Virus record (IMG/VR): IMGVR_UViG_3300032253_000001
Span: 1 to 46,750 of that record
From: a virus
Taxonomy: Duplodnaviria; Caudoviricetes
Reading direction: 5' to 3' (one strand)
Length of the DNA stretch: 46,750 nt
Shown: positions 1 to 46,576 of the stretch, piece by piece
Layout of the letters: each line of letters begins with the position of its first letter
Position numbering within the stretch: the stretch's first letter is position 1
The notes under the pieces: model-generated
What the model saw: only the letters and a program-made list of their open reading frames with translations
Told to the model about the DNA's origin: nothing
Databases searched by the model: none
Made by a program: the position numbers and the translations under genes

Positions 1-127
1 CCCACTCCTCTGGCTGACACGGAGACAGGCATGATAACCGACATCGAGCAGCAGCTCTGCTTTATCGACAGCGAGACGCGCCGGATCCCCGACGCCACCA
101 TCGACGACGTCACCAAGGTCGGTGGCT
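1..127. repeat. 127-bp direct repeat, identical to 46624-46750 (circular assembly overlap)
   Basis: CCCACTCCTC...GGTGGCT is present at both ends. It cuts through the 5' end of the polymerase gene, and 127 is a common assembler k-mer size. Confidence 0.93.
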
Positions 128-1248
128 ACCGCTACGCCCGGCAGGCCATGGCCACCATCTGGTCCGCCGCCATCGGCAGCGAGGAGGCGTGGGCTGTGGA
201 GACGGACGAGGACGCCCGCGCTCCCATCCGCTGGGCGCAGATGCCGGGCGAGGTGTACCGCTTTCACGAGCGTGTAATGGACGGCGACGCGTGGTACGGC
301 GCGTGGAACGCGGCCTTCGACCGCCTGATCTGGAACAGCCCGCAGAGCGACTTTCCACCCACAAAGCCCGAGCACTGGATCGATGTCATGGCGCAGGCCG
401 CCGCCTCGAACCTGCCCGGCAAGCTGGCGCACGCGGCCAAGTTCGTGGGCTGCACGCAGAAGCTGGAGACGGGCAACAAGCTGATCGGCCTCTTCGAGCC
501 CCCGAACGGGGCCACGCCCGCCTCCCGGCCCGACGACTGGGAGGAGTTTGTCGAGTACGCCTGCCTCGACGTAGAGGCCATGCGCGACGTCTACCTCGCC
601 ACCCGGCCCCTCGGCCTGAGCGAGTGGGAAGCCTACTGGGCCAGCGAGCGCATCAACGACCGTGGCGTGCCCGTGGATCTGCACACCTGTGCCCGGGCCG
701 CCATCCTGAATGACGAGGCCGTGTACGTGATGAACGAGCGCATCCGCGAGGTGACGGGGGGCCGGGTTGACAAGGTCACGGGCGTCTACAAGCTGAAGGC
801 GTGGCTGCTGGACGAGATCGCGGACGGCAACGTCCTGAAGATGCTGACGGAGAAGCGGGAGCTGCTGCACGAGGACGGCAGCCTGAAGCGTGCCGCCAAG
901 TACAGCACGGAGAGGGCGCGGCTGGAGCAGGCCGTGGCCTACTACGACAGCTGGGACGACCTGACGGAGATCGAGAGCGACCTGCGCGAGGTCATGGAGC
1001 TGCGCATCCACGGTGGATCCACCACCCCCGCCAAGTTTCGCACGATCCTGAACCTCGCCGACGATGACGGCAACCTGAAGGGGCAGTACGTCACCAATGG
1101 CGCGGGTCAGACGGGGCGCTTCAGTTCCCGGGGCGTGCAGACGCACAACCTCACGCGCTCGCATCTGGGCGAGCTGGAGGAGGAGGCCCTGATCTATCTG
1201 GGGGATCTGGACGACCCCCGCTGCGACACCCTGACGAGGAGAGATTGA
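31..1248 (+). CDS. Family A DNA polymerase, N-terminal half (3'-5' exonuclease + thumb region)
   Basis: ExoI FIDSET, ExoII WNAAFD, ExoIII YACLD, ERINDRGVPVD and QTGRFSSRGVQTHNL are present. The ORF stops before motif A. SD GGAG upstream. Confidence 0.9.
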   Translation: MITDIEQQLCFIDSETRRIPDATIDDVTKVGGYRYARQAMATIWSAAIGSEEAWAVETDEDARAPIRWAQMPGEVYRFHERVMDGDAWYGAWNAAFDRLIWNSPQSDFPPTKPEHWIDVMAQAAASNLPGKLAHAAKFVGCTQKLETGNKLIGLFEPPNGATPASRPDDWEEFVEYACLDVEAMRDVYLATRPLGLSEWEAYWASERINDRGVPVDLHTCARAAILNDEAVYVMNERIREVTGGRVDKVTGVYKLKAWLLDEIADGNVLKMLTEKRELLHEDGSLKRAAKYSTERARLEQAVAYYDSWDDLTEIESDLREVMELRIHGGSTTPAKFRTILNLADDDGNLKGQYVTNGAGQTGRFSSRGVQTHNLTRSHLGELEEEALIYLGDLDDPRCDTLTRRD

Positions 1249-2282: not shown

Positions 2283-2531
2283 ATGAGCCGAGCGAACATC
2301 ACCAGCCTCCGCCTACGCCCCACGGGCGCGATCCGCGTCGTCGTCGCTGACCAGTTCGAGCGCAACGTCTGGGGGCGCGACGACGCCACCATGGACGAGG
2401 CCACGGCCCTGTCGTGGCTGGCGGGGGAGATCGGCGTGGACGACCCCGCCGACTTCAGCACTATGCTGAAGGATGATCTGATGGCCGCCATCAGCGCCAT
2501 CTTCGCCTACACGCCCGGCGACGAGAGCTGA
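2283..2531 (+). CDS. hypothetical protein (82 aa)
   Basis: SD AGGAG before ATG 2283; stop overlaps the helicase start. Confidence 0.65.
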   Translation: MSRANITSLRLRPTGAIRVVVADQFERNVWGRDDATMDEATALSWLAGEIGVDDPADFSTMLKDDLMAAISAIFAYTPGDES

Positions 2532-3910
2532 TGCTCGGCCCCGCCGATCTCCACGGATACCAAGACCGCTCGATCACGGAGATATACGAGCGCGGCAGCG
2601 TCATGGGCATCGTGCCCATGGGCGGCGGCAAGACGACGTCCTACCTGACAGCCGCGCGTGAGCTGCAGAGGGACGGCGTCACGAGGGGCGGGATCATTCT
2701 CGCCCCCAAGGCCGTGGCTGCGGGCGTCTGGCGGCAGGAGGTGGCCAAGTGGTCGCATCTCTCCGACATGGAAGTTGTGCTGGTGGCGGGCAGCCCCGCC
2801 CAGCGTACGAAGCTCCTGAACAGCGCCGCCAGCCTGCACGTTGTGGGCATCGACAACACGCAGTGGCTGGTGGAGCAGATGGCCGACTGGTCAGCCGACG
2901 ACCCCCGCCTCGACACGCTGGGTATCGACGAGATCAGCCGCTATAAGAACCCCATGGGCAAGCGTAGCCGCGCCCTTGTCCTGACTGCGGATCGCTTCGA
3001 CAACAGGGTCGGCCTGACGGGCACGCCCATGCCCAACAGCGAGGCGGATCTCTACATGCCCGCCCGCCTGATCAGTCGCAAGCTGGTCTGGCCAGAAGCC
3101 TTCCTGAACTGGCGGATGAGATACTTCTTCCCCGACGACGTCTACACGCAGCTGAGCTGGTCGATCCGCGAGGACTACAAGCAGCAGATCCACGACGACG
3201 CCGCGCGCTTCAGCTTCACCGTGTCGCCAGACGAACTGCCGCCCACGCCCGAGCTGCGCACCGTCGAACACTGGGTGGAGATGCCGGGTCGGGCCATGGA
3301 TGTCTACCGCGACATGATGCGCCATCTCGTGGCCGAGGCGGGGGGCGACGTCGTGGAGGCCCTCAACCGCGCCGTGGCCAGCGGTAAGCTGGACCAGATC
3401 GCGCAGGGCTTCATTTACAAGGACGGCGAGACGCTGGAGATCCTGCACGACGCCAAGCTGCGCAAGCTGGCGGATCTTGTGGGCGGACTGGGTGGCGAGC
3501 AGGCCCTGATCACCTACTGGTTTCAAGAAGATCTCACCCAGATCCGCGACCTGCTGGGGGCCGATCTGCCCGTACTGGGCAGCAACACCAGCGAGGCGGA
3601 GACGGAGGCCTATATCGAGCACTGGAATACCGGCCGCATCCCCCTCATGGCCGTGCATCCGGCCAGCGCCGGGCACGGACTGAACCTGCAGGAGAGCAGC
3701 GCGGGGCAGATCATTCACTACTGCCCTACGTGGTCGGCGGAGCTGTACGATCAGGTCAACGCCCGCCTCGTGCGGCAGGGCAACAAGGCCGAGACCGTCA
3801 TGAACCACCTGATCCTTGCAGAGGGGACCACGGACAGCCTGAAACGCGACCGCGTGCGGGGCAAGCAGCTGCGGCAGGCAGATTTCATCGCGCACGTAAG
3901 GGAGATGTGA
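2531..3910 (+). CDS. SNF2-family (SF2) helicase
   Basis: PMGGGKT (Walker A), IDEIS (Walker B), LTGTP, SAGHGLNLQ, QVNARLVRQG. Confidence 0.92.
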   Translation: MLGPADLHGYQDRSITEIYERGSVMGIVPMGGGKTTSYLTAARELQRDGVTRGGIILAPKAVAAGVWRQEVAKWSHLSDMEVVLVAGSPAQRTKLLNSAASLHVVGIDNTQWLVEQMADWSADDPRLDTLGIDEISRYKNPMGKRSRALVLTADRFDNRVGLTGTPMPNSEADLYMPARLISRKLVWPEAFLNWRMRYFFPDDVYTQLSWSIREDYKQQIHDDAARFSFTVSPDELPPTPELRTVEHWVEMPGRAMDVYRDMMRHLVAEAGGDVVEALNRAVASGKLDQIAQGFIYKDGETLEILHDAKLRKLADLVGGLGGEQALITYWFQEDLTQIRDLLGADLPVLGSNTSEAETEAYIEHWNTGRIPLMAVHPASAGHGLNLQESSAGQIIHYCPTWSAELYDQVNARLVRQGNKAETVMNHLILAEGTTDSLKRDRVRGKQLRQADFIAHVREM

Positions 3911-6057: not shown

Positions 6058-6840
6058 CTACGCCATCTCCACCACGTTGCTGGTTTCATTCACTTCTACG
6101 CTGTTCTGCGCGTCGTCGATCTCGACCATGTTGTGGGGTCGGGTCAGCCGGGCGCTGTTGATACTCTTACTGACGTCGGGATACCGGAGCGCCGACGTAT
6201 CCAGACCCGTCGCCAGTATGGCGGGCAGAGAGGGTGTGCCTGATGCCGTCTTCGTAATCGCGCCCGTGCCACTGGCCGTGACCGCTGGCAGAGAGGGTGT
6301 GCCCGAGGCCGTGTTGATGACCTCGCCTACGCCACTGGCCGTGACTGCTGGCAGAGAGGGTGTGCCCGAGGCCGTCTGCGTAATCGCGCCCGTACCGCTA
6401 ACTGTGATCGCTGGCAGAGAGGGTGTGCCCGAGGCCGTGTTGATGACCTCGCCCACGCTACTGGCCGTGGCTGCTGGCAGAGAGGGTGCACCCGAGGCCG
6501 TCCGCGTGACCTCGCCTACGCCACTGGCCGTGACTGCTGGCAGAGAGGGTGTGCCCGAGGCCGCGTTGAGGCTCTCGCCCACGCCACTGGCCGTGACTGC
6601 TGGCAGAGAGGGTGCGCCCGAGGCCGTCTTCGTAATCGCGCCCGTACCGCTGGATGTGATCGCTGGCAGAGAGGGTGTGCCCGAAGCCGTGTTGATGACC
6701 TCGCCCACGCCACTGGCCGTTACTGCTGGCAGAGAGGGTGTGCCCGAGGCGGTATAAAGGTCGTAGCTTTCGTCGCCAAGAACCTGCCCGCTTTCGTCCA
6801 GTAGAACATTGCTGCTCTGGTCAAGCAGACGATTGGTCAT
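6058..6840 (-). CDS. virion/tail protein built from 21-aa tandem repeats
   Basis: About 9 copies of TASGTPSLPA(V/I)TASG(V/T)G(E/A)xxx. Confidence 0.8.
   Translation of the reverse strand: MTNRLLDQSSNVLLDESGQVLGDESYDLYTASGTPSLPAVTASGVGEVINTASGTPSLPAITSSGTGAITKTASGAPSLPAVTASGVGESLNAASGTPSLPAVTASGVGEVTRTASGAPSLPAATASSVGEVINTASGTPSLPAITVSGTGAITQTASGTPSLPAVTASGVGEVINTASGTPSLPAVTASGTGAITKTASGTPSLPAILATGLDTSALRYPDVSKSINSARLTRPHNMVEIDDAQNSVEVNETSNVVEMA
6205..6753. repeat. 63-bp coding tandem repeat, 8 full copies and 1 partial
   Basis: GCAGAGAGGGTG(T/C)GCCCGAGGC recurs every 63 nt. Confidence 0.9.
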
Positions 6841-6848
6841 GGTCTACC

Positions 6849-7238
6849 TCACCCGTCCCAGCCGAACAGCGCATCAATCTGCCCATCGGTTACGCTCGTA
6901 GCGACTTGAACAGCCTTAAGTAGCGGCGCATCCCGGCGGATTTCAGTTACCGCAGCCCATTCGATTTTTGCCTCTGCCGCCCGATCCGCCGTCATGCCGG
7001 TGAGCGCCTTGTCGAAAGACGCGGGCCACTCACCTTTGGCTGCGATAACTGCGTCATCCGCGCTGAGTAGACCGGCACGGAAGCAGGCGAGGCAGAAATT
7101 TCTGCGGCTAAGTGCGGCATTTCCTCGCCATCTACCCAATCGACCTGCCTCATACTCTGCGCGTTCGGCCTCTATGCGCGCAACTTCTTCATCTGGCAGT
7201 GGAACCATTTTCCCGTTGACCATCTTCTCCATCGTCAC
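6849..7238 (-). CDS. tail-fibre-associated/chaperone-like protein
   Basis: Follows the fibre gene; C-terminal W..VTEIRRDAPLL...QIDALF pattern. Confidence 0.6.
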   Translation of the reverse strand: MTMEKMVNGKMVPLPDEEVARIEAERAEYEAGRLGRWRGNAALSRRNFCLACFRAGLLSADDAVIAAKGEWPASFDKALTGMTADRAAEAKIEWAAVTEIRRDAPLLKAVQVATSVTDGQIDALFGWDG

Positions 7239-32142: not shown

Positions 32143-32218
32143 GCACCTCGGCCAGCCGCCCCTACCCGGGGCGTCTGGGACGGGCGCTCAGCCCGATTAC
32201 AGCAAATTGGAGACCGAC

Positions 32219-32452: not shown

Positions 32453-32787
32453 GCCTGAACAACCAGTCCAACTTATCCCGCGTAAAGCGCATCCTAGACG
32501 CGCTGGACCTAATCGAGGTGTCTGCCAAGTCAAACCGGGCCTCTCCCGACGACGTGGCAGCCCTGCTACGCCCCGTCACGGCGCGTCTGGTGCCCCCGGG
32601 GGCATCCCCAACCCCTCAGACGCCGCCTGCGGCTTCTGCGGCCCCCGTGGCCCCCGCCGGGGCCGCTCGTGAGGCGGTAGGCCCCGGCGTACCCTCACGC
32701 GACCGAGAGGACATACGACAGGCTCTGGCCGATCTCACCCGCGACGTGGGTAATCTACGAAGCGTCGTACTGGGATGGCCCGTCTGA
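32449..32787 (+). CDS. early hypothetical protein
   Basis: GTG start coupled to the previous stop; SD GGAGG. Confidence 0.65.
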   Translation: MSLNNQSNLSRVKRILDALDLIEVSAKSNRASPDDVAALLRPVTARLVPPGASPTPQTPPAASAAPVAPAGAAREAVGPGVPSRDREDIRQALADLTRDVGNLRSVVLGWPV

Positions 32788-32868
32788 TATGAGCACCAAG
32801 ATCTGCAGCCCCGCTCGGGGCTGCAGCGCCGGGCGCTCAGCCCGATCACAGCAAAATGGAGACTAGAC

Positions 32869-33771
32869 ATGTTTAACGACGTAGCATTCAACGCCCAAGT
32901 CCGCGACATCTTCGACGCCAATGGCAACCGGGTTCCCCGGGACATTGGCCGGGGGGTGTATCGTGACGACAGCGACGAACTGATCTCGATCTGCGGTCCG
33001 GCCTTCAAGCCCGTTCAGCACATGGACGTGCTGGAGCCGCTTATGCGGGGCCTCGAGGAGCAGGGTTACGCCGTCGAGGAGCGCACCGGAGCCACCCGCT
33101 CGGCCCTCCACGACCTGAAGGGCCGCAAGGGCGCATGGATCTCGCCAAAGGTAACCGATAACGGCGCAGTGATGCGCACGGATATCATCCTCGGCGACTT
33201 CATCGAGCCCACTGGCTCGACCAGCTATCTCGCCGATGGCCCGGATACCAACTTCTTCCGGGTCTCGATCCTCAACAGCCACAACAGCAAGTACGCGGTC
33301 AGGGTGAACACCTCGTACCTGCGCGTCATCTGCATGAACGGCATGACCCAGCCGCACTTCTCGGCTGGCGTCTACGGCAAGCACACCAGCGGCTTCTCGG
33401 TCGATGGTTTGCAGCGCCAGATTGCCAGCGCCATGCAGATGATGGGCGACGACGCCGACCGCTTCGGCCTCTGGGCTAAGACCAAGGTCAGTATCGATCA
33501 GGCGACTGACTTCTTGAAGCTCACCCTCGCCAAGCTACCCAATAAGGCGACTGGCGAGGCCCACCATAGCGAGCCCCTCCTGAACAAGATCATGGCCCGC
33601 TTCCGGGTCGAAGATCAGACCCTTTGGGGATTGTATAACGCCGTCACGTGGTGGCAGACGCACGACGACTTCCGCGCCAATGCCGACCGGCTCACCGCCG
33701 GTATCGGACGCGAGCAGAAGGTCGCCTCGATGCTGAAGTCGCCGGTGATGGAGGAAATGTTCGCTATCTGA
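32869..33771 (+). CDS. DUF932/DUF945-family phage/plasmid protein
   Basis: YRDD...G..FKPVQH, ILNSHN, RVICMNG, GKHT, TLWGLYNAVT..TH. Confidence 0.8.
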   Translation: MFNDVAFNAQVRDIFDANGNRVPRDIGRGVYRDDSDELISICGPAFKPVQHMDVLEPLMRGLEEQGYAVEERTGATRSALHDLKGRKGAWISPKVTDNGAVMRTDIILGDFIEPTGSTSYLADGPDTNFFRVSILNSHNSKYAVRVNTSYLRVICMNGMTQPHFSAGVYGKHTSGFSVDGLQRQIASAMQMMGDDADRFGLWAKTKVSIDQATDFLKLTLAKLPNKATGEAHHSEPLLNKIMARFRVEDQTLWGLYNAVTWWQTHDDFRANADRLTAGIGREQKVASMLKSPVMEEMFAI

Positions 33772-33844
33772 GCACCAAGATCTGCAGCCCCTCCCGGGGC
33801 TGCAGCGCCGGGCGCTCAGCCCGATCACAGAGGAGTATAAAACT

Positions 33845-34396
33845 ATGGGAACACGTGGAGCAATCGGTTGGATCCTCGACGGCGAGGTAAAAGCCATTTA
33901 CAACCACTTCGACAGCTACCCCGATGTCCTCGGGCGAAAAATGCTGGACGCCTTCAACGCCATGCAGGGTGACCTCGGCGGCTGGAAGGCCAAGGCCAAG
34001 GCACTGACATTCGTCGAGGGTGAGCCTACCCCCGACGATATCGAACGCCTTACGGCCATGGGCATAACCCCCCAAACAGTGAGTACGGGAAGGGATTGGT
34101 ACGCGTGGCTTCGTAACCCTCAGGGTGACTTGCTCGAAATCCTGAATATGGGTCTCGCGGAAGACGGCACGGACTTTTTGGGCGACAGCCTGTTCTGTGA
34201 ATACGCCTATCTGGTGGATTTCGACAGCAACGAACTGGTGTGCCTCAAGGGGTTCAACAAGAAAGAGGCCGATGCGTGGCCGCCCGCTCAAAAGATGGTG
34301 ACGAGGCGTAATACCTACCACGCCGTTAGCCTCGCCGGTCGCTTGGCCCCGAGCAGCACCTACACGGACATGGGGGATATCTACTTCACCGAGTAA
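33845..34396 (+). CDS. early hypothetical protein (MGTRG...YNHFDSYP family)
   Basis: MGTRGAIG, YNHFDSYP..LG, FL.DSLFCEYAYLVDFD; repeat leader. Confidence 0.8.
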   Translation: MGTRGAIGWILDGEVKAIYNHFDSYPDVLGRKMLDAFNAMQGDLGGWKAKAKALTFVEGEPTPDDIERLTAMGITPQTVSTGRDWYAWLRNPQGDLLEILNMGLAEDGTDFLGDSLFCEYAYLVDFDSNELVCLKGFNKKEADAWPPAQKMVTRRNTYHAVSLAGRLAPSSTYTDMGDIYFTE

Positions 34397-34460
34397 ACCG
34401 GGTAGCCCCCGCCCGGGACTACAGCGCCGGGCGCTCAGCCCGATCACAGAGGAGAACATC

Positions 34461-34892
34461 ATGAACCAAGCCGCACACCTGCTCACCCTGTCCAGCGTCG
34501 CGGAGGAGGACGCCACGGGCCGCTTCTACGCCTTTGCCACTCGCCTGCACGACGGAGAGACCGTCTATATCCCCTCGCTGATCTGTGAGAAGGAGGGCAT
34601 CGACTACAGCACCATCGGAGACCGCCTCTGGGCCTTTTGCAGTCAGGTGCCGGGTCGGGGGGACGGTACCCGCCTCACGGCCTTTGTACGCTGGGATGGC
34701 GACGACGAAAAGGCCGATCACGTCGAGGTCAGGTTTGTCGAAAACATTCCCCTCGGCGATACCGAGACCCTTCTCGCGGCCATCCGCCTGCAGCGCGATC
34801 TGCTCGAGAAGATCGAGCGCTCGATGGGTGTCAGCGTGCGCTATCTGCAGAGCCGCGTGGACGCCGCCGAGGCGACCAAGCCCGACGCATAA
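34461..34892 (+). CDS. early hypothetical protein
   Basis: SD GAGGAG; repeat leader; ends at the terminator. Confidence 0.75.
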   Translation: MNQAAHLLTLSSVAEEDATGRFYAFATRLHDGETVYIPSLICEKEGIDYSTIGDRLWAFCSQVPGRGDGTRLTAFVRWDGDDEKADHVEVRFVENIPLGDTETLLAAIRLQRDLLEKIERSMGVSVRYLQSRVDAAEATKPDA

Positions 34893-34943: not shown

Positions 34944-35101
34944 AGTCTGTAGCGACTAGAATAGGGCAACCACGGAGCTTTTCCTTATATAGGGGGGACT
35001 TTTGTATTTTCACAACCTATGGTTGTAAATATAAAAGTCGTCGTTCTCATATAGAAAGCTCCGTGGTTGCCCTATTCTAGTCTGTAGCGACTAGAATAAG
35101 G
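34944..35101. repeat. long palindrome with direct repeats; candidate replication origin
   Basis: Perfect 28-bp inverted repeat (34954-34981 / 35055-35082) around an AT-rich imperfect inner palindrome; 20-bp direct repeat (34944-34963 / 35079-35098). Confidence 0.85.
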
Positions 35102-37438
35102 TCAGTCGCCCTGACCCTCTTCGTCTTTTTTCCAGCGATCCAAGTCTGTGACGACTTCGCCGCGCAACTTGGCGTTCGCGTCCAGCCAAGGGGCGGCAGC
35201 CGGTCCTCGACGGTATCGGCGAACGTTTTTCTGGTGCCCGGCGGACGCCAAGACGACCCACCCGGCGGCCTGAATGGCCTCCGTCATGGCGTGTACATCC
35301 GACCTCGGAATGCGCTTCGCGGAGGGGTCCATGGCCGTCTGGTAGATCTCCATCATCGTGGGGCATTTCGACGCCAGCAGGGGGTGATCCTCCGTCACCC
35401 TGAGGGCCTTCTCCACGCTGGCGTTGAAGGGGTTATCCTTGCAGGCTCCCTCCTGCGCCCTGATCACGTCCTCGTACAGCTGCCGGTCCCCCGGCACCCT
35501 GTCGTAGTCGAACCACCACGTCTCCCCCGCCTCGTAGGCCGCGCGGGCCTCGGCCCAGATCTGCAGCCTGACGTCGCGCAGGCCGCGCACGTTGAAGCGA
35601 CCCTCCGCCAGCACGGGCCAGAAGCGGCGGTTGCCCGTGCTGTCGGTCAGGAACTGCATGTGATTGGTGGTGGCGGCGAAGACCGTGCGCCGCTGCACGG
35701 TGACCGCCTTCGAGGTGTAGGGCACCCTGTAGCGATCCGAGGTGGTGCTGATGAAGCTCTTGACGTGTTCCGCATCCGCCTTGCCAATTGCCGTCATCTC
35801 GGCCACCTCGGCGATCCAGATCCCGGCCAGCCACTCCTTGGCCGCCTTGTCCGAGGCCCCCGCACCCACCTTGGGCATATCGTCGCCGAAGAGCTGGCCG
35901 TCGGCCCCCGGGGCCACGCTGCCCGCCAGAGCCGCGAGGAGACTGCTCTTGCCCTCCCTATGCACGCCCTGCGCCCCCTTGATCACGAGGATGTTGTCCA
36001 GCTTGCAGCCCGGTCTCATGGCCCGCGCGACGCAGGCGATCAGCCACTTGCGCGACACGGATCTGACATAGGCCTCGCTATGCGTGCCGTCCGCCGTGGC
36101 CCCGCCGTAATCAAGCAGCCACGCGTCGATCCTAGGCTCGCCGTCCCACTCCGGCAGATCGGCGAACATGGCGTGCAGGGGATCCCACGGATGCTCACCC
36201 GCCGCCATGCCCACGCCGTCCCGCGTGGCCTCCTTTCCGAAGGGCTGACCCATCCAGTCCTCCATATCGTAGTTGATATGCGAGCAGAGCAGGAGGTCGT
36301 CCACGTCCGTCATCTGTCGGGGGAAGCCCTCGCCGGGAGGGAAGATGCCCCCGCCGTCGTCCATCAGCCACGGGTGGTGCTGCATGCTGTTCAGGCGGAT
36401 GGTGCCCTCCATATGCTGGGCGATCCAGTGCGCGATGTTGGTGTAGACGTTTTTCACATTGCCGTTGGCCGCCGTCAGGTAGCCACGGGCCACGGGCGGG
36501 CGGTGTACCACTGTTTCCGTCTGCGGCAGGTCAGCGCCCAGCGCCTGAAGGCGATCCGCCACGTCGGAGGCCACGTCGCCCACCTCACGCGGCTCCAGCG
36601 CCGCCTCGTGGTGCGTGTGATCCGTCATGCTGTCCCAGACGGCCACTCCCCCCTGTGTGTCCAGCGTGGCGCTGCAGCGACGCGTATTGCGTGCCACGGA
36701 GCCGTCCAGCCACGACGCCGACAGATAGTAGTAACCCCCGCCTCCCAGCCGCTCGCGCAGCTCGTCGAGGCTCAGCTCGCCGTCCTCCCGCGTGGCGAAG
36801 GTCATTTCAGGCCCCAGATCCCAGATCTGCGAGGCCGAGGTGCGCTCCACGTCCTCACCCCGCACGCGCTCGAAGCGAGCGTCCAGCCAGAGGTAGCAGA
36901 AGCGGGCGATCTCCTCGAAGCGACCTAGGCTCAACTCGGGCAGATCCGCCAGTCGTGTATCGAGGGGGCTGCCGTCCAGCCACTGGTACTCCAGTACGCC
37001 CTTGGTGTGCCAGCCCATCGCCCCGAACTGGCGCGGGCTCTCGCCGCCGAAGATCTCCACGGTAAGGCCCTCGCCGCCGTCCGTGTACGTGGCCGTGGCG
37101 ATCCTGCCGAAGGGCTCGGCTGTGCGCACGAACCACGCCTCCTTGAAGCCCTTGCCTCCCCGGTAGAGGGCGCTCTGGAGTTCGGGGAAGGCATCGAGCA
37201 GGCTCTCGTACAACTCACCGGCCTCGTTCACGTTGGTGTCGAAGTCCAGAGCCGCCAGCCCGTTCTGCAGGCGTAGGCCCGTGGCCTCGAAGGCCGACAT
37301 ACGATCCCAACGCCGTATTTCGGCCTCCGTGATCTCGATGGATGACCAGCCGGGAAACTGGCAGAGCTTGTCCACATTCGGAAGCACGGCCCAGCCATTT
37401 CTGAAAGCCCGCAGGCGGTCGTCGGTACGCGCGTTCAT
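35102..37438 (-). CDS. primase-helicase (Prim-Pol-like N-terminus + VapE/VirE-like ATPase)
   Basis: TGLRL..LAALDFD; WDGEPRID, VARAMRPGCKLD, GAQG....GKS, EVAEM, DRYRVPY, FLTDSTGNRRFWPV. Confidence 0.88.
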   Translation of the reverse strand: MNARTDDRLRAFRNGWAVLPNVDKLCQFPGWSSIEITEAEIRRWDRMSAFEATGLRLQNGLAALDFDTNVNEAGELYESLLDAFPELQSALYRGGKGFKEAWFVRTAEPFGRIATATYTDGGEGLTVEIFGGESPRQFGAMGWHTKGVLEYQWLDGSPLDTRLADLPELSLGRFEEIARFCYLWLDARFERVRGEDVERTSASQIWDLGPEMTFATREDGELSLDELRERLGGGGYYYLSASWLDGSVARNTRRCSATLDTQGGVAVWDSMTDHTHHEAALEPREVGDVASDVADRLQALGADLPQTETVVHRPPVARGYLTAANGNVKNVYTNIAHWIAQHMEGTIRLNSMQHHPWLMDDGGGIFPPGEGFPRQMTDVDDLLLCSHINYDMEDWMGQPFGKEATRDGVGMAAGEHPWDPLHAMFADLPEWDGEPRIDAWLLDYGGATADGTHSEAYVRSVSRKWLIACVARAMRPGCKLDNILVIKGAQGVHREGKSSLLAALAGSVAPGADGQLFGDDMPKVGAGASDKAAKEWLAGIWIAEVAEMTAIGKADAEHVKSFISTTSDRYRVPYTSKAVTVQRRTVFAATTNHMQFLTDSTGNRRFWPVLAEGRFNVRGLRDVRLQIWAEARAAYEAGETWWFDYDRVPGDRQLYEDVIRAQEGACKDNPFNASVEKALRVTEDHPLLASKCPTMMEIYQTAMDPSAKRIPRSDVHAMTEAIQAAGWVVLASAGHQKNVRRYRRGPAAAPWLDANAKLRGEVVTDLDRWKKDEEGQGD

Positions 37439-38064
37439 CGGGCACCCCCTTCCGACACGTAGGACCAGAGCCTCCCGGCTCGAATGGCCTTCACTGTAGA
37501 GTTCGACACCCCGAACTCCCGCGCGAGAGATGACGACGGCTTACCCTTTCGTGACAGTATGGACACCACCTGCGCCTCTTTCAGCATACAGTTTGGGTTC
37601 GCTTCACCGGGCAACGAACCGCCTGCGGCACGCCCCTTCGCCACTGCGTCTCGCATGTTGTCGATGTGGGTGCCCAAGAAGAGATGGTCAGCGTTGCAGC
37701 ACAGGGGATTATCGCATTTATGTAGGACGTGCATGCCGTCGGGGATGGAGCCGTTCGCGCGCACCCAAGCGAACCTGTGCGCACGAACGGTCTGGCCTCC
37801 GGTGCGCATTGCGCCGTACCCCTTCTGCGTGGCCCCGATCCAGTTCATGCAGCCGGTTTCAGGATCGTATAACGTGCGGGCCTCGAACGCTGCGTCGGGG
37901 TCACCCACGAAGTGGGGGGTAGCCCCGCCTGTCGGCGTTCCATGCCTGCGCTGCCGTAGGTAGTGCGCGTTGCACAAACCGTATTTCTTCACGTGGATCA
38001 GGCTTTGGCACCCTTTTACGGTGCATGTGTCGCGTGTCAGTCTGTCTTCGGTGCGCTGGTGCAT
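37435..38064 (-). CDS. free-standing HNH endonuclease
   Basis: C..C...LCNAHY.R.RRHG, GCMNWIG...GYG, AHR, VLHKCDNPLCCNADHLFLGTHIDNMRD; C-terminal HTH-like LAREFGVS. Confidence 0.9.
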   Translation of the reverse strand: MHQRTEDRLTRDTCTVKGCQSLIHVKKYGLCNAHYLRQRRHGTPTGGATPHFVGDPDAAFEARTLYDPETGCMNWIGATQKGYGAMRTGGQTVRAHRFAWVRANGSIPDGMHVLHKCDNPLCCNADHLFLGTHIDNMRDAVAKGRAAGGSLPGEANPNCMLKEAQVVSILSRKGKPSSSLAREFGVSNSTVKAIRAGRLWSYVSEGGAR

Positions 38065-38184
38065 CTCTCAGCGGCTCCTGTATGTTGCGGTCGTTGACGA
38101 CCTGTGTGATAGCCGTTGCGCCCGCACCCATCATCTTGTATGAAGATCGCAGACGTGTCAGTCTCATTGGTGCCCTGCACCGGA

Positions 38185-38218
38185 AGGCCCCGCCCATAAA
38201 ACAGGCGGGGCCTTTTTC
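38185..38218. terminator. GC-rich stem-loop, possible terminator
   Basis: AAGGCCCCGCC-CATAAAACA-GGCGGGGCCTTTTT; the T-tract is on the + strand. Confidence 0.45.
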
Positions 38219-38239
38219 GTATCACGCTTGTCGGTTCCG

Positions 38240-38584
38240 TCAAAGTGACCTGTGACGTCGCGCCAGTACGACCCGGCGACACCTGAGCACGGAGCGTAGC
38301 TCTCCCGTCGATAGCTCGCACCAAAGTCTGGCGTAGCCCCCCGTCAGCACGACGAAGCCGGAAGGCAATTCGATTGCCTTCGGCCTGCGGGCCCCACCGA
38401 AAGTGCCGAAGCGAAGACGCAGATCGTCGTTCGATGCGCCGTATGATGTCACAGCGGGACCGACTGCGTATTCTCCGCGCGCGAAGACGCGGTCTCGCTC
38501 GAAGCGGCGGCTCAAGTCACCCATCGTCATCACAGCGGCCCTCCACAGTAGCGGCACACGTGCCCCCGCCCCCTTGCTCCGCAC
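38240..38584 (-). CDS. hypothetical protein (start uncertain)
   Basis: Only sizeable co-oriented ORF in the gap. Confidence 0.4.
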   Translation of the reverse strand: MRSKGAGARVPLLWRAAVMTMGDLSRRFERDRVFARGEYAVGPAVTSYGASNDDLRLRFGTFGGARRPKAIELPSGFVVLTGGYARLWCELSTGELRSVLRCRRVVLARRHRSL

Positions 38585-38647
38585 CCTCTTTACACAGACG
38601 CTGCAGGATGGCCTCTACCAGCCTGTCAATCTCTTGTTGATCGCAGC

Positions 38648-38863
38648 TCATATCACCCACCCCACAAGAATGATCGCGATGTTCAGCATGATGCCGCCGA
38701 GGATCAGGCGCAGATAGATGGGCCAGCGCTCGTAGTAGAAATTACGCCAGTAGCTGTCGAAGCCCGTGGCGTAGGCCAGCAGGGAGACCGCCGTATCGCC
38801 AATCAGAGCGAGGCCGAGGAAGAGCGCGGGGATGGCGAGGAGGTAAAAGAGGATTTCAGTCAT
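38648..38863 (-). CDS. small membrane protein
   Basis: Two hydrophobic segments; overlaps the previous stop; SD GGGAG. Confidence 0.7.
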   Translation of the reverse strand: MTEILFYLLAIPALFLGLALIGDTAVSLLAYATGFDSYWRNFYYERWPIYLRLILGGIMLNIAIILVGWVI

Positions 38864-39383
38864 GATCGTGGCTCCCTCTCAGTTCGTCGCCCGTGGCTCC
38901 GGGACCGAAAGTGACGCGCGGCGCTAGTTTTTGCCGGGCCGCGCGCGCCATATCCGCGAGCACAGTGTCGGGTAAAACAGGGAGCCGGACCTCCTGCTGG
39001 CCCAGAGCCGCCCCCAGAACCTCCTCGAAGACAGCCATCGAAGGCGTGGTGCCGCACTCCATCTCACCGGGGCGGTCGTCCCGGCCCGTGCCCCGCGCCT
39101 CGTAGGCGATCAGGAATGCAATGCAGCAACCGGCGTGCCAGAGGTGGCTCATGCCCGTCTCTAGGTCGCAGTCCTGACCGCCCCACCACGCCGCCATGTG
39201 GCGCTCCAAAGCGGCGTAGAGGCGGCTCCAGTCCATGCCCAGTTCCCAGTTGCGGTCGCTATACTTGCCCGCGCCATAACTCAGCACGGCGGCCACGGCG
39301 GCCCCCAGCTCGGGGGGCAGCAGCTCGTAGCGCAGCTTTTGCCGGTCGTCCTTGCGACCCTCCAGCCTCTTCGCGTCTTCCAT
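38856..39383 (-). CDS. DUF5664-like dATP/dGTP pyrophosphohydrolase
   Basis: GRKDD..KLRYELLP, YGAGKYSDRNWELGM, ALERH..W..G.D.D.ETG.SHL.HA. Confidence 0.8.
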   Translation of the reverse strand: MEDAKRLEGRKDDRQKLRYELLPPELGAAVAAVLSYGAGKYSDRNWELGMDWSRLYAALERHMAAWWGGQDCDLETGMSHLWHAGCCIAFLIAYEARGTGRDDRPGEMECGTTPSMAVFEEVLGAALGQQEVRLPVLPDTVLADMARAARQKLAPRVTFGPGATGDELRGSHDHD

Positions 39384-39384
39384 G

Positions 39385-41220
39385 TCAGTCTCCTACTTTG
39401 GTGTAATAGTCGTTCTGCGTCGTCTCCGCTACCATGGGCAGACCCTCGGCCCACTTGGGTAGGGTCTCCATGGCCAGCTTCAGGCGGATCTCGGCCTCGT
39501 CCGCGTGGCGCTCGGGCACCAGCTGGCCAATCTCGTCGTGCGTGTGCAGGATCGTCTCGGCCCAACTCCAGTCGCGCTTCTCCAGATCCACCAGCGTGTG
39601 GCGGAGGAGCGACCCTGCGGTGCCCTGTGTGACGTTCTCACAGTTATGTACGATCAGCGGCCCCGCATCACCTCTGACCACGAAGCGCGATCTGGGTCCG
39701 GCGTTGACGATGTCATAGACAGGCCGCGCACCCATCGGTACCGCAGCGTGCTCTCCGCCAGCCCCGTCATCCGCTGCGCCGCCGGGATGTCCACGGGCAG
39801 TGAGTTGCGCCGGTTCCTCGCCTGCTCCTCGCGGGTCGCCCAACAGCAGTTCTCGGGTGTGTAGTCGCCCCCGTTGTCGATCCGCTCCAGCGTGAGACCT
39901 CGTCGGTACGAAGGCCCCATGTCCCGCCAAAAAACCTCGAAAGTCTGCCAGCGTGTGCAGACAGAGATGCCCCGCCCACCGTAGTTGTGCCACGCCTGAT
40001 GCGAGGGCAGCCTGCAGCGGTCTAGCATGGACCGCCACACCGCGTAGGCGGGGTGCGACGTCATCCCGTGGGTGCATATGCTGCTGCCGATCAGAGCGCC
40101 AGTCATGCAGCCGCAGGATTTTGGCGATGGAGGCCGGTTGCCCCGCAGCCAGCCCGAGCTGTCGTACAAGTCGAGCGAGCCGCACACGCACCTCGCCCAC
40201 CACTGTGCGCTCCTGCCGTGACCAGCCGGAGGTCCGAGTGACACGACCGTCAGGTAGCCGAACGCTCGGCCTGCCAAATCGTTTACAATCCTGCGCCGCT
40301 TTCCATCCGTCATCCGTCATCACCTCGTGCCCTCGTGTCATCATGACACCGTCCACGGGCATGGTAAGGTCATAACCATTAAAACTCAACCCCCCGTGCC
40401 GCACCCACTCGACGCCGTCCCACAGCCTGTCGGAGAGCTGGACGTCAGTCAGCTGCACCCAGCCTCTGTCGGTCAGGACGTCCGTGCCACCCTCCAGACA
40501 GAGCGTGCCGTGCCAGAGGCTCTTGCGCTCGTAGCCGGAGGTGTAGCGGATCTTCACCTCCCTCACCTCCTCGCCTGTCTCCTCGTCCTCGTACTTGACT
40601 ATCTCCCGGCGTAGGGCAGGGTATGTAATGGCGCGTCCGTCGGGCAGGTAGCAAAACATGCAGCCGCGCAGAATAGAGGGCAGAAAGACGTAGCTGACGC
40701 GGCCCGCACTCTGGATCTCACCCGGATTATCCCACGCCTTCTGAAAGGCGCGCATCAGCTCGGCCCAGAAGTCCACGGCCCACTGGTTGTTTTGCCGCCA
40801 ACGGCTGACAACCATGGCCTTGAAGTCCTCCTCGAGGTGCAGGCCGTAGCCCGTGGCCATGGCCGTGAGAGCGCCCGCGCCGCCCCCGAAACCCAAAGCC
40901 AAAACACTCACCTTACCCACCTGACGCTCCCCCTTGTCTACGTCCGTGGCTGGCTTGTCGTAGATCCCTCCGGCTTCGACCCTGTAGATGTCGGGCAGGG
41001 AGGGATCGGCGTCGTTGGTGCGGAAGATGTCCAACACGCGATCTGCGGCCTTGGTGTTGGCCAGCCACGGCAGCACGCGGGCCTCAATGGCAGACCAGTC
41101 GCCCCAGACCAGCTTGTACCCCTCGGGGGCCACGATCTGGGGGCGGATCAGGCGGCTCACGGCCCTGCTGGTGGGCCCGAAGCGAGCCTCGAAGTCGGTG
41201 ACGGTGTCAGTCGTAATCAT
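39385..41220 (-). CDS. Family A DNA polymerase, C-terminal half (palm/fingers), intein-containing
   Basis: Motif A DWSAIEAR, motif [21 protein letters not shown], motif C HTHDE; own SD GAGGAG; 325 aa after intein removal. Confidence 0.9.
39643..40500 (-). mobile_element. intein (286 aa) in the DNA polymerase
   Basis: Starts [14 protein letters not shown]; block B TRGHEV; block [10 protein letters not shown]; ends IVHN followed by +1 Cys. Splicing restores WHGTL-CENVTQG. Confidence 0.93.
39654..40313 (-). CDS. HNH endonuclease nested in the +1 frame of the intein
   Basis: [59 protein letters not shown]; SD GAGGTG 7 nt before ATG 40313. Confidence 0.88.
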
Positions 41221-41294
41221 GGTTTAAGTTCTCCTCAGTGCGGCCATATCACCCTTTTTGGGTGTGACGTCCCGTACGATGCAGGGACATTGCG

Positions 41295-43297: not shown

Positions 43298-43669
43298 CTA
43301 TTCAGTCGTCCCACCCCCCGACAGGTCGCTCAGATACGCTTCGATCTTCGCTCGAGCCTCCTGATCCAGTTGCATCGCCTCGATCAGCAGGCGGAACTCG
43401 CCCAGCTTCCAGACGACGTGGACCTCATGCCCCAGCTCGCGCAGGCGCGCGATGCGCAACTCCTGCTGGCGGCTCAGCCGACCCTTCTCATCCTTGACCT
43501 CGATCCACCAGACGCGGCCATTAGGCAGCACCAGCAGGCGATCAGGCCAGCCGCGCCGACCCTTGATCTCGATCTTCAGAGCCTCCCCGCCCAGCTTCTT
43601 CTCTGTGAGAGAGACGATCTGCTGTTCGAGGTAGCTTTCTGGCTGTTTTTTCGGCTTCGGTGTTGACAT
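43298..43669 (-). CDS. VRR-NUC nuclease
   Basis: E..LE...GWPDRL...WIEVK...GRLS..Q...I.RLRELG. Confidence 0.9.
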   Translation of the reverse strand: MSTPKPKKQPESYLEQQIVSLTEKKLGGEALKIEIKGRRGWPDRLLVLPNGRVWWIEVKDEKGRLSRQQELRIARLRELGHEVHVVWKLGEFRLLIEAMQLDQEARAKIEAYLSDLSGGGTTE

Positions 43670-43729
43670 GATAGTCAGCGCTCCGTAAAAGGTGGGCCAC
43701 AGGTGACCCCTTATAAGGCCCCACCAACT

Positions 43730-44047
43730 ATGAAGTCAACAGCTAAAACCCCGCTTCAGGAGGCCCTGCCGGACCGCCCGGACAAGAGGCGAAAATTCAC
43801 GCTTAGCGACGAGGCCTACCTGCGCCTGTCCTGCGAGGCGGACACAACGGGCGTCTACATCAGCGAGGTTCTGGAAGATTTGATCATGACAGCTTTGGAC
43901 CCGCCGCCCGTCGGATACGAACCATCAGGCCGCAAGGGCAAACGACGCTACAGCCGGGCGCTGGCCCGGCGGCGCTACGCCCGGGATCCCAAGGCCCCCG
44001 CCACACGAGACACGAAACTGGAAGACGCTCTGAAGGGAGAGATCTAA
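43730..44047 (+). CDS. ribbon-helix-helix-like DNA-binding protein
   Basis: KRRKFTLSDEAYLRL..EA...G..ISEVLEDLI; first gene of the divergent operon. Confidence 0.55.
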   Translation: MKSTAKTPLQEALPDRPDKRRKFTLSDEAYLRLSCEADTTGVYISEVLEDLIMTALDPPPVGYEPSGRKGKRRYSRALARRRYARDPKAPATRDTKLEDALKGEI

Positions 44048-44331: not shown

Positions 44332-45645
44332 ATGACCGACACACAGTACACCCCCACCGCCCACTCGAACGTCGTCGGCGGCAGCTCCGCCGCCCGCGTT
44401 CTCGCCTGCCCCGCCAGCGTCAAACTGATCCAGACCATGCCCCCGCAGGCGGAGAGCAGCTACGCCGCCGAGGGCACGGCCCTGCACAACGCCATCGAGC
44501 ACTGCCTCTATGAGGGGTTGGAGCTGGAGGGGGTGCAGGAGCTGGCTGGCGAGGAGTTCTACGGCATCAAGCTGACAGCTGACATGGTCGAGGGCGGCCT
44601 CGTGCCCGCGTGGCAGATGTTCTGGGACTACGTGGACAGGATCGAGGCCGAGGATGAGAGCGAGTTCATCTTCGCCGTCGAGCAGTCGGTCCACTTCCCC
44701 GGCATCGGGGATGCCTTCGGCACCGCAGATATCATCGGCCACACGAGCAAGCGCTCCGTAGTCTGGGACTGGAAGTTTGGCAAGGGCGTCGTCGTCTCGG
44801 CGAAGGAGAACAAGCAGCAGATGTACTACGCCTGCGGCAGTTCCAACACGGCGCAGGCGCCCTTTCTGCCCAAGTCTATCGGCGAGTGGGAGAACGCCCC
44901 CGACGACTGGGCCGTGGACCTGATCATCGCCCAACCCTTTATCCACGAGGAGCCCTCCGTCTGGACGACGAACCCCGTGCAGCTGGAGGACTTCGAAATC
45001 AAGTTGCAGGGGGCCGTGACGGAGGCTCTGGAGGCGGAGGATCCCCGCGTGGCACGCGGCGATCACTGCCGCTGGTGCACGGCCTCCCCCATCTGCCCCA
45101 TGTACCGGCAGGTGGGCGAACGGCTGGCGGCGCTGGTGAACGGCGAGCGCGAGCCGGGCACTGTTCAGGAGGTGGCGGAAGCCGACATGACGGAGGTGGA
45201 GGGCCCCGAGCCGGAGGTTCTCGCCAAGGCTATCACCCCTGATCTGCTCGCCGAGTGGCTGCTCAAGGCCGATATCGTGGAGCTGTGGGCGAATAGCGTG
45301 CGCGGGCTGGCCATGAGCGAGGCGGAGGCGGGCCGACCGCCCGCAGGCCTGAAGCTGGTGGAGAAGGTCGGCAACCTCGCCTATACCTCCCCCGCTACGG
45401 CAGACAAGATGCTGGGCAACAAGGGTCTCACCGCCGTCGAGCGTCGCAAAATCGCCCCGATCACTCCCACGCAGGCGAATGCCCTGCTGAAGAAGAAGGG
45501 CAAGAAGCTGCTGACGGACAGGCAGGCCCTGCGCCCGAAGACAGGCGTGGTGCTCGCGCCGCTGGACGACAAGCGTCCTGCGGTGAAGACTGTGGCCGAC
45601 AAGGCGGCAGCCGTAGCAGAGAAACTGTTGCACGAGCCCGACTAA
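44332..45645 (+). CDS. DUF2800 / Cas4-like PD-(D/E)xK exonuclease
   Basis: GGSSAAR..ACPAS, AAEGTALH, FGTADII, DWKFGKG, N.Q..YY, GDHCRWC....C. Confidence 0.88.
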   Translation: MTDTQYTPTAHSNVVGGSSAARVLACPASVKLIQTMPPQAESSYAAEGTALHNAIEHCLYEGLELEGVQELAGEEFYGIKLTADMVEGGLVPAWQMFWDYVDRIEAEDESEFIFAVEQSVHFPGIGDAFGTADIIGHTSKRSVVWDWKFGKGVVVSAKENKQQMYYACGSSNTAQAPFLPKSIGEWENAPDDWAVDLIIAQPFIHEEPSVWTTNPVQLEDFEIKLQGAVTEALEAEDPRVARGDHCRWCTASPICPMYRQVGERLAALVNGEREPGTVQEVAEADMTEVEGPEPEVLAKAITPDLLAEWLLKADIVELWANSVRGLAMSEAEAGRPPAGLKLVEKVGNLAYTSPATADKMLGNKGLTAVERRKIAPITPTQANALLKKKGKKLLTDRQALRPKTGVVLAPLDDKRPAVKTVADKAAAVAEKLLHEPD

Positions 45646-45733: not shown

Positions 45734-46576
45734 ATGACTGGAACAAACGTAGCGGCGGCAGCCGCAGCTGGCGATCTCGCCACCCTTCAGGGCCTGAAGC
45801 AGGCCGTGACCAAGACCCGCAGTGAGGTGCCCGACGTGGGCACCAAGCCCTTTCTCAAGCTGGAGAAGACCGGCAACTGGGTCTACGGGCAACAGGGCGT
45901 CGTCGTGGAGGACGGCAGCCTCTGGGCGATCAACCCCCTCTCCTTCATGCACGGCTATGTCTGCTGGACGGACTACCCTAAGGAGGCCAAGCAGAAGAAC
46001 AAGAACCTCGGCAAGGTCGTGGTGGGTCTGGGCAAGGACAAACCCCTGCCGGAGAACCTCGCCGAGTACATCGACCCCGACGGCTGGAATAACGGCCAGC
46101 CGTGGGAATGGACCACGTGTATCAGCGTCGAGCTGATGTGCGTATCGGGCGAGGACGAGGGTACAGTGGTCGTATACGATACCAACAGCGTCTCCGGCGT
46201 GCGCATGCTGAGCGCCTACCTCGACAAGCTCATGGCGCAGCTGGACAATCCCAACCCCAAGCCCGTGGCCGTGGTCACCTTCGGGAAGGACAGCTACGAT
46301 CACCCGCAATGGGGCGTAACTGTGGTGCCCGAATGGTCGTATGAGGACTGGCGGGCGCTCGACGACGCCACCCCCGTGGCTGCGGATCCCGAGCCGCAGG
46401 GCGAGGCCCCCAAGCCTCAGGCTGAGCCCGAGACGACCGAGGCGGAACCCACCCGCCGTCGCCGTCGCGGGGCAGCGGATCAGGCGGCGGAGGCTCCTGC
46501 AGAGGCGTCCTCCGGCGCACCGGAGGAGGGACGCGCGCCGCAACCGACCCGGCGTCGGCGTCGTCCCGCCGCCTGA
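45734..46576 (+). CDS. single-stranded DNA-binding protein (probable)
   Basis: Lies between exonuclease and pol; FLKL...G.W.YG, INP.SF.HGY..W, YDHPQWG...P; acidic/Arg-rich tail. Confidence 0.65.
   Translation: MTGTNVAAAAAAGDLATLQGLKQAVTKTRSEVPDVGTKPFLKLEKTGNWVYGQQGVVVEDGSLWAINPLSFMHGYVCWTDYPKEAKQKNKNLGKVVVGLGKDKPLPENLAEYIDPDGWNNGQPWEWTTCISVELMCVSGEDEGTVVVYDTNSVSGVRMLSAYLDKLMAQLDNPNPKPVAVVTFGKDSYDHPQWGVTVVPEWSYEDWRALDDATPVAADPEPQGEAPKPQAEPETTEAEPTRRRRRGAADQAAEAPAEASSGAPEEGRAPQPTRRRRRPAA

Follow-up and report, generated by a model that had tools for sequence, protein, structure and literature searches.

DNA polymerases encoded by two genes have been described in families A and B. For family A (PolA), the fission between exonuclease and polymerase domains in T7-like phages was called the first PolA split, with adjacent genes whose products are predicted to form a complex (PMC10201439), while the MEP401-type PolA lies in two open reading frames (ORFs), for which an intron was suggested (Yang et al. 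2023, PMC10580990). For family B (PolB), it is established that dispersed two-gene polymerases can be active (PMC13648687, PMC3061061): in PhiKZ, DNAP-N gp82 and DNAP-C gp50 form a stable, active 1:1 complex (PMC13648687, a 2026 preprint), and other split PolBs are the T4-like gp43A/B and those of RM378 and Methanothermobacter (PMC3061061). Here we describe the virus record IMGVR_UViG_3300032253_000001 (Caudoviricetes), whose 46,750 nt we refer to as the window, and in which a PolA is encoded by two genes on opposite strands, polA-N and polA-C, specifying the N and C halves of the enzyme. The original prediction, made from the sequence alone, had taken PolA genes interrupted by introns, inteins or HNH genes as the only precedent, although two-gene PolAs without these have been published (PMC10201439, PMC10580990).

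We consider it most likely, with a probability of roughly 0.8, that the window encodes an SPO2-like family A polymerase as two separately translated genes, whose products would fold together non-covalently into one proofreading enzyme. A natural two-gene PolA with non-covalent assembly had also been the core of the original prediction, and it is favoured by the conserved break, the separate starts of the two genes, purifying selection and a predicted complex.

The S-SBP1-like PolA of T7-like cyanophages (PMC10201439; 10.1101/325100) resembles this polymerase in its two-gene fission, the lack of an intein and the predicted reassembly. Its cut, however, falls between the exonuclease and polymerase domains, whereas that of the window falls inside the polymerase domain; its genes overlap side by side, whereas those of the window's family range from adjacent (6 of 27 split loci) to opposite strands; and it belongs to the T7-like subfamily, whereas the window's enzyme appears SPO2-like. 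The cultured OM43 phages MEP401 and MEP402 (Zobellviridae) share a cut between motif 2 and motif A, with a small ORF between the halves (PMC10580990), but these are collinear, belong to a different PolA group and are cut directly before motif A, with the Asp at residue 6 of the second ORF as against about 40 aa here. PhiKZ offers a parallel in its separately translated halves and in a cut within a helical palm insertion, which there is built by both subunits; PhiKZ is a family B case shown by experiment, whereas that of the window is a family A case and predicted (PMC13648687).

Judged by the polymerase, the closest cultured relative is Octadecabacter phage OANV1 (MW805363), a podovirus of similar size and gene set with a polymerase of the same family and the same break (39% and 47-49% identity). 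Its halves, gp32 (418 aa) and gp29 (352 aa), are collinear, with two small ORFs between them and no intein. The main text of the OANV1 paper (PMC9239159) does not contain the words 'polymerase' or 'split', and its supplement lists both ORFs as DNA polymerase. A literature search, to which most subscription journals and the supplements of PMC10201439 and of preprints were outside scope, returned no SPO2-like split and no PolA halves on opposite strands; the portions of PMC3201878 and PMC4889955 covered by it likewise hold nothing on either. Split PolA is thus already known, and the SPO2-like split and the dispersed halves appear to be new. No demonstration of a functioning two-gene family A polymerase was found in the literature searched.

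The two polymerase genes

Joined at its ends, which overlap by 127 nt, the window forms the complete circular genome (46,623 bp, 63% GC) of an uncultured phage, and the virus record carries the classification direct terminal repeats. The polA-N gene (31..1248, + strand) encodes 405 aa, starting with a 3'-5' exonuclease (about aa 1-205) and continuing through the thumb and the palm strands of motif 2 to the opening helices of the insertion behind motif 2. Its protein matches phrog_17 (E 3e-26), a Shine-Dalgarno (SD)-like GGAG (21..24, + strand) lies 6 nt upstream of its ATG, and its first 97 nt are repeated at 46654-46750 owing to the overlapping ends. The polA-C gene (39385..41220, - strand) encodes a precursor of 611 aa, or 325 aa minus an insert described below, with the remainder of the helical insertion, motif A, the fingers (motif B) and motif C. 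It matches PF00476 at 38.7 bits (cut-off 34.3), and a profile search with the C half matched Klenow and Taq. Both genes had been predicted at these coordinates, which the ORFs of 405 and 611 aa bear out, and the GAGGAG SD attributed to polA-C is indeed present at 41231..41236 (- strand), 10 nt upstream of its ATG. The two starts face away from each other on opposite strands and are 5,433 nt apart on the circle, in line with the 5.4 kb first estimated.

All catalytic motifs are present across the two proteins, as had been claimed. The exonuclease residues are on the N protein (Exo I D13/E15, Exo II N93-D97, Exo III Y176/D180), and D13, E15, D97, Y176 and D180 are invariant across the 78 rows of the N alignment. 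The polymerase residues are distributed between the halves, with motif 2 R363 on N, and motif A D41, motif B R99/K103 and motif C H561-D562-E563 on C. The features of a family A enzyme are therefore found on both proteins: exonuclease and thumb ahead of the palm on N, motifs A, B and C together with PF00476 on C. The N protein terminates 31 aa past ...VQTHNL, and the motif A Asp is residue 41 of C, close to the 30 and 40 aa predicted.

Against the intact 748-aa polymerase of Nsp-JY18, N residues 1-404 align to 7-437, C residues 6-241 to 430-666 and C residues 527-611 to 666-748. With the insert excluded, the concatenated halves cover this protein end to end without a gap and with an overlap of about 8 residues, which agrees with the earlier view that no part is missing or duplicated. 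The predicted total of about 730 aa holds once the insert is removed (405 + 325), but the ORFs sum to 1,016 aa, and the 286-aa insert had gone unmentioned. The absence of split-intein termini at the break was also upheld, the two ends matching continuous fused relatives apart from short tails. DNA synthesis by N and C together is predicted.

Misassembly of one contiguous gene had been named as an outcome that would overturn the prediction, and the window is a contig from a short-read metagenome. The window's DNA is present in three runs, each a microbial mat metagenome; no RNA run is listed for it, which is uninformative about expression. In run X1, a 10,622-nt contig starts at 42314, passes the circle junction and reaches 6312, and 38000-42108 is covered by a second contig of 7,030 nt; neither differs from the window, and their depth is 37-39. 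Both the N end and the C start are crossed by these contigs without branching, although X1 is possibly the source of the window and hence not independent. Runs X2 and X3 yielded short pieces only, and no break was bridged among the pieces listed. Independent support for the layout comes from the separately assembled sister locus L091, where an N gene 94% identical to that of the window is followed by the SNF2 gene in the same order, with no C half behind it. The N protein of L091 (P0242) and an insert-free C protein of 327 aa that is 89% identical to the window's C (P0122) are each on a 47,046-bp contig, and we infer that this is one and the same sister contig. Two distant lineages, L011 and L013, also have the gene order of the window. 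Judging from these assemblies, the opposite-strand layout is a real gene fission, and misassembly is barely credible.

Position of the cut and predicted complex

The AlphaFold2 model of the N protein has a predicted local distance difference test score (pLDDT) of 93.4 and resembles family A polymerases from the exonuclease via the thumb to the motif-2 strands. Its best fold match is the phiVC8 family A polymerase (Z 14.4, root-mean-square deviation (rmsd) 4.8, 312 aligned), and it also aligns to Bacillus Pol I residues 312-638 (Z 13.6), the two alignments spanning 307-312 residues at rmsd 4.8-5.3. Searched by sequence with the N alignment, the PDB returned no match under E 0.25, so that this placement came from fold comparison alone. 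After motif 2, the model contains helices 371-374, 380-392 and 397-404. Motif 2 and motif A are 61-89 aa apart in fused relatives, mostly about 70, and the cut is in the middle of this stretch, past helix 380-392 and about 200 aa past the exonuclease.

The cut therefore passes through the polymerase domain. It does not divide a proofreading from a polymerase subunit, because N also bears the thumb and, with motif 2, part of the palm, and the 'separately regulated proofreading and polymerase subunits' first proposed do not describe the two proteins. In Pol I, the thumb and the motif-2 arginine are required for synthesis, so C alone should be inactive; with thumb and motif 2 on N and motifs A, B and C on C, neither half would be expected to polymerize by itself.

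A predicted complex of N with P0122 scored 0.91, while the best of three controls scored 0.00; the mark used for this score is attained by 116 of 157 solved pairs and by 2 of 215 mismatched pairs. Contact agreement between runs was at least 93%, the partner pLDDT was at least 90, and the roughly 240 contacts of the interface take in N 374-398 and C 1-32. Two points temper this result as support for the proposed enzyme: the C partner was the sister's intein-free protein (89% identical) and not the C protein of the window, and halves of a split gene pass such a test easily through their likeness to single-chain structures, for which reason the score indicates compatibility and not binding.

The motif B of C (R99-x3-K103-x3-L107) has leucine at position B3, a residue shared by all 82 aligned C halves (L109 of P0122). 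Leucine at B3 is given as a defining trait of SPO2-like PolA, cluster 3 (PMC10201439). Other traits of that cluster are grouping by sequence with SPO2 (CDD cd08642) and several small helices bundled beneath a broken thumb helix. The C half is 33% identical to the SPO2 polymerase (E 9e-31, within the top 15 rows), and together with L107 this identity points to the SPO2-like subfamily.

Conservation of the split across related loci

Related loci were gathered by scans each of which returned its best 80 loci, so the counts given here are not population frequencies. They amounted to 258 (the window added and its own three records removed), of which 216 have both halves and 135 are non-redundant at 90% identity. 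Among these 135 loci, PolA is fused in 108 and split at the same place in 27, including that of the cultured OANV1. The halves are adjacent in 6 of the split loci, where the N stop touches or overlaps the C start, collinear with gaps of about 0.2-6.2 kb in 18, and opposite and divergent in 3, namely the window (5.4 kb), L010/L011 (3.0 kb) and L013 (8.1 kb). In L136, the C half is upstream of the N half on the same strand, and the partial loci L117, L194 and L091 are compatible with the order of the window.

Length-limited homologue searches gave the same picture for the single halves. The N half found 250 homologues (222-709 aa). Motif A is missing from 93 of the best 120 listed, and 88 of this set stop 25-60 aa past motif 2. 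The C half found 164 (132-420 aa), and in 98 of the 120 listed a Met start is located 34-55 aa upstream of motif A. Identity to N is 50-56% for the nearest stand-alone halves and 43-44% for the best fused forms, the latter from a search of longer proteins. Scanning viral contigs with the N half as a lone protein returned no relative, and alignments were needed. Start codons that have an SD match (at least 4) and lie 30-60 aa upstream of motif A are present in 20 of 26 split loci versus 25 of the 103 fused ones; rows without the motif A pattern, 1 split and 5 fused, are excluded.

Alternatively, the halves could be decaying remnants in a phage that replicates with the host polymerase, and relaxed selection had been named as an outcome that would speak for this. 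The large insert in the C gene, which has no curated intein match, would fit such decay, but the selection data do not: the ratio of non-synonymous to synonymous substitution rates (dN/dS) of N between the window and L091 is 0.08 over 405 codons, below the 0.21 and 0.12 of two neighbouring genes, and seven pairs of split phages gave 0.18-0.31 for N and 0.11-0.34 for C. Six of the seven catalytic motif patterns, covering the exonuclease, motif 2, motif A and motif C, are retained in 26-27 of the 27 split loci; the narrow motif B pattern is found in 13 of 27, and the motif B lysine is invariant in 82 aligned C halves. The 89% identity between the window's C and its insert-free sister protein also speaks against decay, as does the finding that no DNA polymerase other than polA-N/polA-C was detected among the 51 window ORFs scanned. 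It should be set against functional constraint that the only selection comparison available for the window's own C gene is with a distant relative at saturated dS (4.3). Overall, both halves are conserved, under purifying selection and probably functional, judging from these sequences, and decay is very unlikely.

The distances of N and C correlate across the 27 loci (Spearman 0.82), at 0.75-0.87 in matched sets versus 0.51-0.79 for four neighbouring genes. This correlation is not used as proof, as linkage predicts much of it and the pairs are non-independent.

Gene order, a probable inversion and a proposed common control region

The replication module of the window consists of genes for a VRR-NUC nuclease, a DUF2800 protein, an SNF2 helicase and a VapE-like primase-helicase, together with the polymerase halves. 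What had been described as two separate operons are two arms of one divergent replication module. The left arm (- strand) begins with the VRR-NUC gene (43298..43669), followed by polA-C and, distally, by the VapE-like primase-helicase gene (35102..37438), downstream of polA-C. The right arm (+ strand) carries the DUF2800 / PD-(D/E)XK nuclease gene (44332..45645), a conserved gene immediately upstream of polA-N (45734..46576) and, downstream of polA-N as the distal gene, the SNF2-type helicase gene (2531..3910). The conserved gene is called 'ssb' here by its position, a label that we presume and that has no family match behind it.

Five gene orders recur among the loci; below, a slash marks the divergence point and < or > the direction of transcription. 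The first, snf2< vrr< / duf2800> ssb> pol> primhel>, is found in 7 fused and 7 split collinear loci (one without a vrr match). The second, primhel< vrr< / duf2800> ssb> pol> snf2>, is found in 33 fused loci, and the third, snf2< ssb< duf2800< / vrr> pol> primhel>, in 6 fused loci. The fourth, primhel< snf2< vrr< / duf2800> ssb> polN> polC>, is found in 6 split loci (one without a vrr match), and the fifth, primhel< polC< vrr< / duf2800> ssb> polN> snf2>, is that of the window and is found in 3 split loci. Orders two to five are each one inversion away from the first, and all of these inversions span the divergence point; their ends differ, falling after pol, before pol, beyond snf2 or between polN and polC.

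It is therefore likely, from these comparisons, that the opposite-strand layout arose by ordinary DNA inversion after the gene had split. The gene would first have split in place, leaving a stop and a start side by side; genes would then have been inserted between the halves; and finally the block from VRR-NUC across the divergence point to DUF2800, ssb and polA-N would have been inverted, with one end in the spacer between the halves, leaving polA-C with the primase-helicase on the other arm. Because such an inversion spans the divergent promoter region, every gene would still point away from the centre and the halves would still be made together. Inversions that preserve direction need cost nothing, and the split would merely provide one extra breakpoint. 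The recurring inversion would thus largely explain the surprise of the opposite strands.

At the divergence point, the promoter-like site TTGACA-17-TAAAAG (43663..43691, + strand) faces the polA-N arm and TTGACT-18-TATAAG (43710..43739, - strand) faces the polA-C arm. They are the only two sites of the window at 10/12 on a relaxed sigma-70 pattern, and both are retained in L091 while the bases of the spacer vary. The rightward site is found in 7 of 20 loci, where 0.6 are expected. polA-N and polA-C are each about 2.5-3 kb from the common divergence point, and this single control region, at distances of about 2.5 and 2.9 kb, likely drives both halves.

Several observations weigh against this account of inversion and joint expression. 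The order of events is unrooted, and the split genes do not form one clade. The relaxed pattern was selected after the site was seen, the leftward site is found in just 2 of 20 loci, and a standard promoter scan of the window gave 2 sites versus 1.9 expected and did not list the divergent pair. A terminator-like hairpin (42702-42682) separates VRR-NUC from polA-C, so that polA-C could be driven by a promoter of its own, although shuffled sequences have as many such sites; internal promoters or terminators may also exist within the arms. The hairpins upstream of polA-C fold no better than shuffles (z -1.26), and for this reason no translational operator is claimed.

A rival reading holds that the split is adaptive, with separately regulated subunits or with N acting alone as a nuclease, tuning proofreading against synthesis. 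Each half does have an SD site of its own and belongs to a separate transcription arm, the split state is maintained in 27 of 135 loci, the N protein is predicted to fold confidently alone, and differential regulation was raised as a possibility for the S-SBP1-like exonuclease/polymerase split (PMC10201439). On the other hand, the present cut does not separate these two activities, 24 of the 27 split loci keep the halves in order on one strand, both arms begin at one divergence point, and a fused gene nested inside the split group (L031, see below) makes the fused state look interchangeable. We regard an adaptive split as unlikely.

The flanks of both halves vary. A Mom-family DNA modification gene (1245-1856, + strand; PF25680, E 1e-25; lower GC of 52-56%) overlaps the polA-N stop; because it is absent from the same place in L091, it is, on this comparison, a recent insertion precisely at the end of the N half. 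On the other arm, five small ORFs of lower GC (54-57%) lie between VRR-NUC and polA-C (41295-43314, - strand), a stretch for which variant contigs are numerous in the runs; in L011, VRR-NUC and polA-C are only about 55 nt apart. From these variants, the stretch is a variable cargo site beside the C half. Directly 3' of polA-C, a dATP/dGTP diphosphohydrolase gene (PF18909; 39383-38856, - strand) varies in placement among relatives, and no PurZ-type gene was detected among the 51 window ORFs scanned. A G+C-rich hairpin with no T run (46600-46627) is located between the ssb-like gene and polA-N, and it could damp polA-N expression.

The intein-like insert and the question of rejoining

The insert of polA-C (39643..40500, - strand) comprises 286 aa (aa 241-526) that are not in the sister protein P0122. 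It has Cys1, TxxH, a terminal His-Asn and Cys+1, and the empty allele P0122 has Ala at the Cys+1 position. An HNH endonuclease gene of 219 aa (39654..40313, - strand; phrog_374, E 1e-49) is nested in its +1 frame, with GAGGTG 7 nt upstream of the ATG. Related inserts occupy this site, or lie within a few residues of it, in four other loci (L028:3828-4685, L056:13038-13895, L070:11936-12874 and L106:12578-13351), each with an HNH ORF of 175-228 codons in the +1 frame whose ATG is behind a purine-rich stretch. C1, T55/H58, H285 and N286 are invariant and Cys+1 is present in all five inserts. Ribosomes would probably bind the nested gene at the codons adjoining the block B histidine, where the window and L056 read GAGGTG.

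These features lead us to predict that the insert is a cis-splicing intein, a 286-aa element whose excision from the C protein would have to come first. All 11 matches of a PDB search with the five-insert profile are to inteins, but the matches are weak (E 0.005-0.16). The insert has no Pfam or NCBIfam intein match at E up to 1, which tells against the prediction and also means that annotation would miss it. On the evidence of L070, which bears the insert and is fused, the insert is independent of the split. A different intein lies within motif 2 of P0023 (668 aa), a stand-alone N half (Hint_2 E 2.5e-4, TIGR01445 E 3.8e-4), and from these matches it is a second intein site in this polymerase family.

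Inteins with out-of-frame endonucleases have been reported with an endonuclease VII-like gene (frame 3) and with antisense LAGLIDADG or VSR-like genes (10.1101/2025.01.02.630785). The window's insert resembles these, and the hidden HNH of ShiLan, in having a nuclease gene in another frame while the insert keeps the host frame open. It differs from the former in its HNH nuclease, the +1 frame, the PolA host and the presence in 5 loci, and from ShiLan, which has an HNH but no splicing domain (PMC11855218), in combining a +1-frame HNH with intein end motifs.

The presence of inteins at two sites in this family, and the intron proposed by the authors for the similar MEP401 split (PMC10580990), raise the question of whether the halves are rejoined as RNA or protein, by a trans-splicing intron, a split intein, or frameshifting or bypass. 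Cis-splicing and frameshifting are excluded by the opposite strands, and the existence of opposite-strand cases excludes a cis intron for the window's polymerase family. The N tail and the C head are short, variable and without intein motifs, a conserved start and SD precede the C half, and the N protein matched no intein model. The window and 9 split loci gave no Rfam match at the gathering score, whether to a group I or II intron or to another family, though divergent introns can escape such a search. Rejoining is accordingly highly improbable. Two specific candidates were rejected: a fractured gene with split inteins (PMC2677866), as no intein halves occur at the N end or the C start, and an intron-interrupted PolA with collinear exons, which is ruled out by the opposite strands.

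Evolutionary history of the fission

An unrooted, quick tree was built from 53 rows (all 27 split and 26 of the 108 fused). All split rows fall within one group of 36 rows (93 in the Shimodaira-Hasegawa approximate likelihood-ratio test, SH-aLRT) that includes 9 fused rows, and the tree needs at least 5 state changes, 4 of them forced by strong branches. A single origin without re-fusion was rejected on the quick tree by constraining a split-only clade (approximately unbiased test, p-AU 7.6e-69), a likelihood gap that possibly reflects the short search in part. The fused L031 (L031:9893-12232) lies within the split group (SH-aLRT 99), and its 83-aa linker between motif 2 and motif A keeps both free ends; it is likely a re-fusion. 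Conversely, L064 is split within a fused group. One old fission followed by re-fusions and repeated fission at one tolerant loop would both fit these data. The window groups with L010 (100), and because L013 is placed elsewhere, two or more origins of the opposite-strand order, or its transfer by recombination, are probable.

A bolder reading takes the halves as free modules, in which the hinge after motif 2 would be split and re-fused repeatedly, N, with exonuclease and thumb, would be dosed or employed on its own to adjust fidelity, and N and C of different phages would pair in mixed infections. We regard this as rather doubtful; if true, a two-subunit PolA would for the first time serve regulation or reassortment.

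Other features of the genome

Elsewhere in the genome, the window encodes a T7-like portal and internal virion proteins. A virion-module protein of 2,875 aa (17288-8661, - strand), with ART-PolyVal (ADP-ribosyltransferase) and LPD38 domains, is likely injected into the host cell. Beside the lysis genes, an unannotated ORF (6840-6058, - strand) contains tandem 63-nt (21-aa) repeats (6158-6850), at which the assembly graph fragments, so that their copy number may vary. A partly palindromic repeat of 55-65 nt occurs in four copies (32160-32214, 32787-32863, 33766-33842 and 34385-34461), each just upstream of a small + strand gene; a role as phage promoters or regulatory sites is likely. The gap separating the small + strand genes from the oncoming primase-helicase gene contains an inverted repeat of 38 nt (34944-34981 / 35055-35092; 89% complementary, 73 nt apart), a candidate terminator or replication origin.

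Conclusions

In the published two-gene PolAs, the genes are side by side, and an intron or frameshift is hard to exclude; opposite strands remove this doubt. PolA is a common phage marker gene, and halves of 320-430 aa can be discarded as fragments. Sequences under 350 aa were removed in one survey (PMC10201439), and such filtering may explain why the split has gone unremarked. The break marks a natural cutting place in a Pol I-type enzyme, which would be useful for split or conditionally assembled polymerases.

With the inverted layout set aside, the remaining value of the locus is a predicted two-subunit PolA with a cultured representative, in addition to a predicted intein with a nested HNH gene. 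The cultured OANV1 makes the question of a two-subunit PolA testable. For the family, the occurrence of fused, adjacent, separated, inverted and probably re-fused states at one site illustrates cleanly how a gene is first split and then rearranged.

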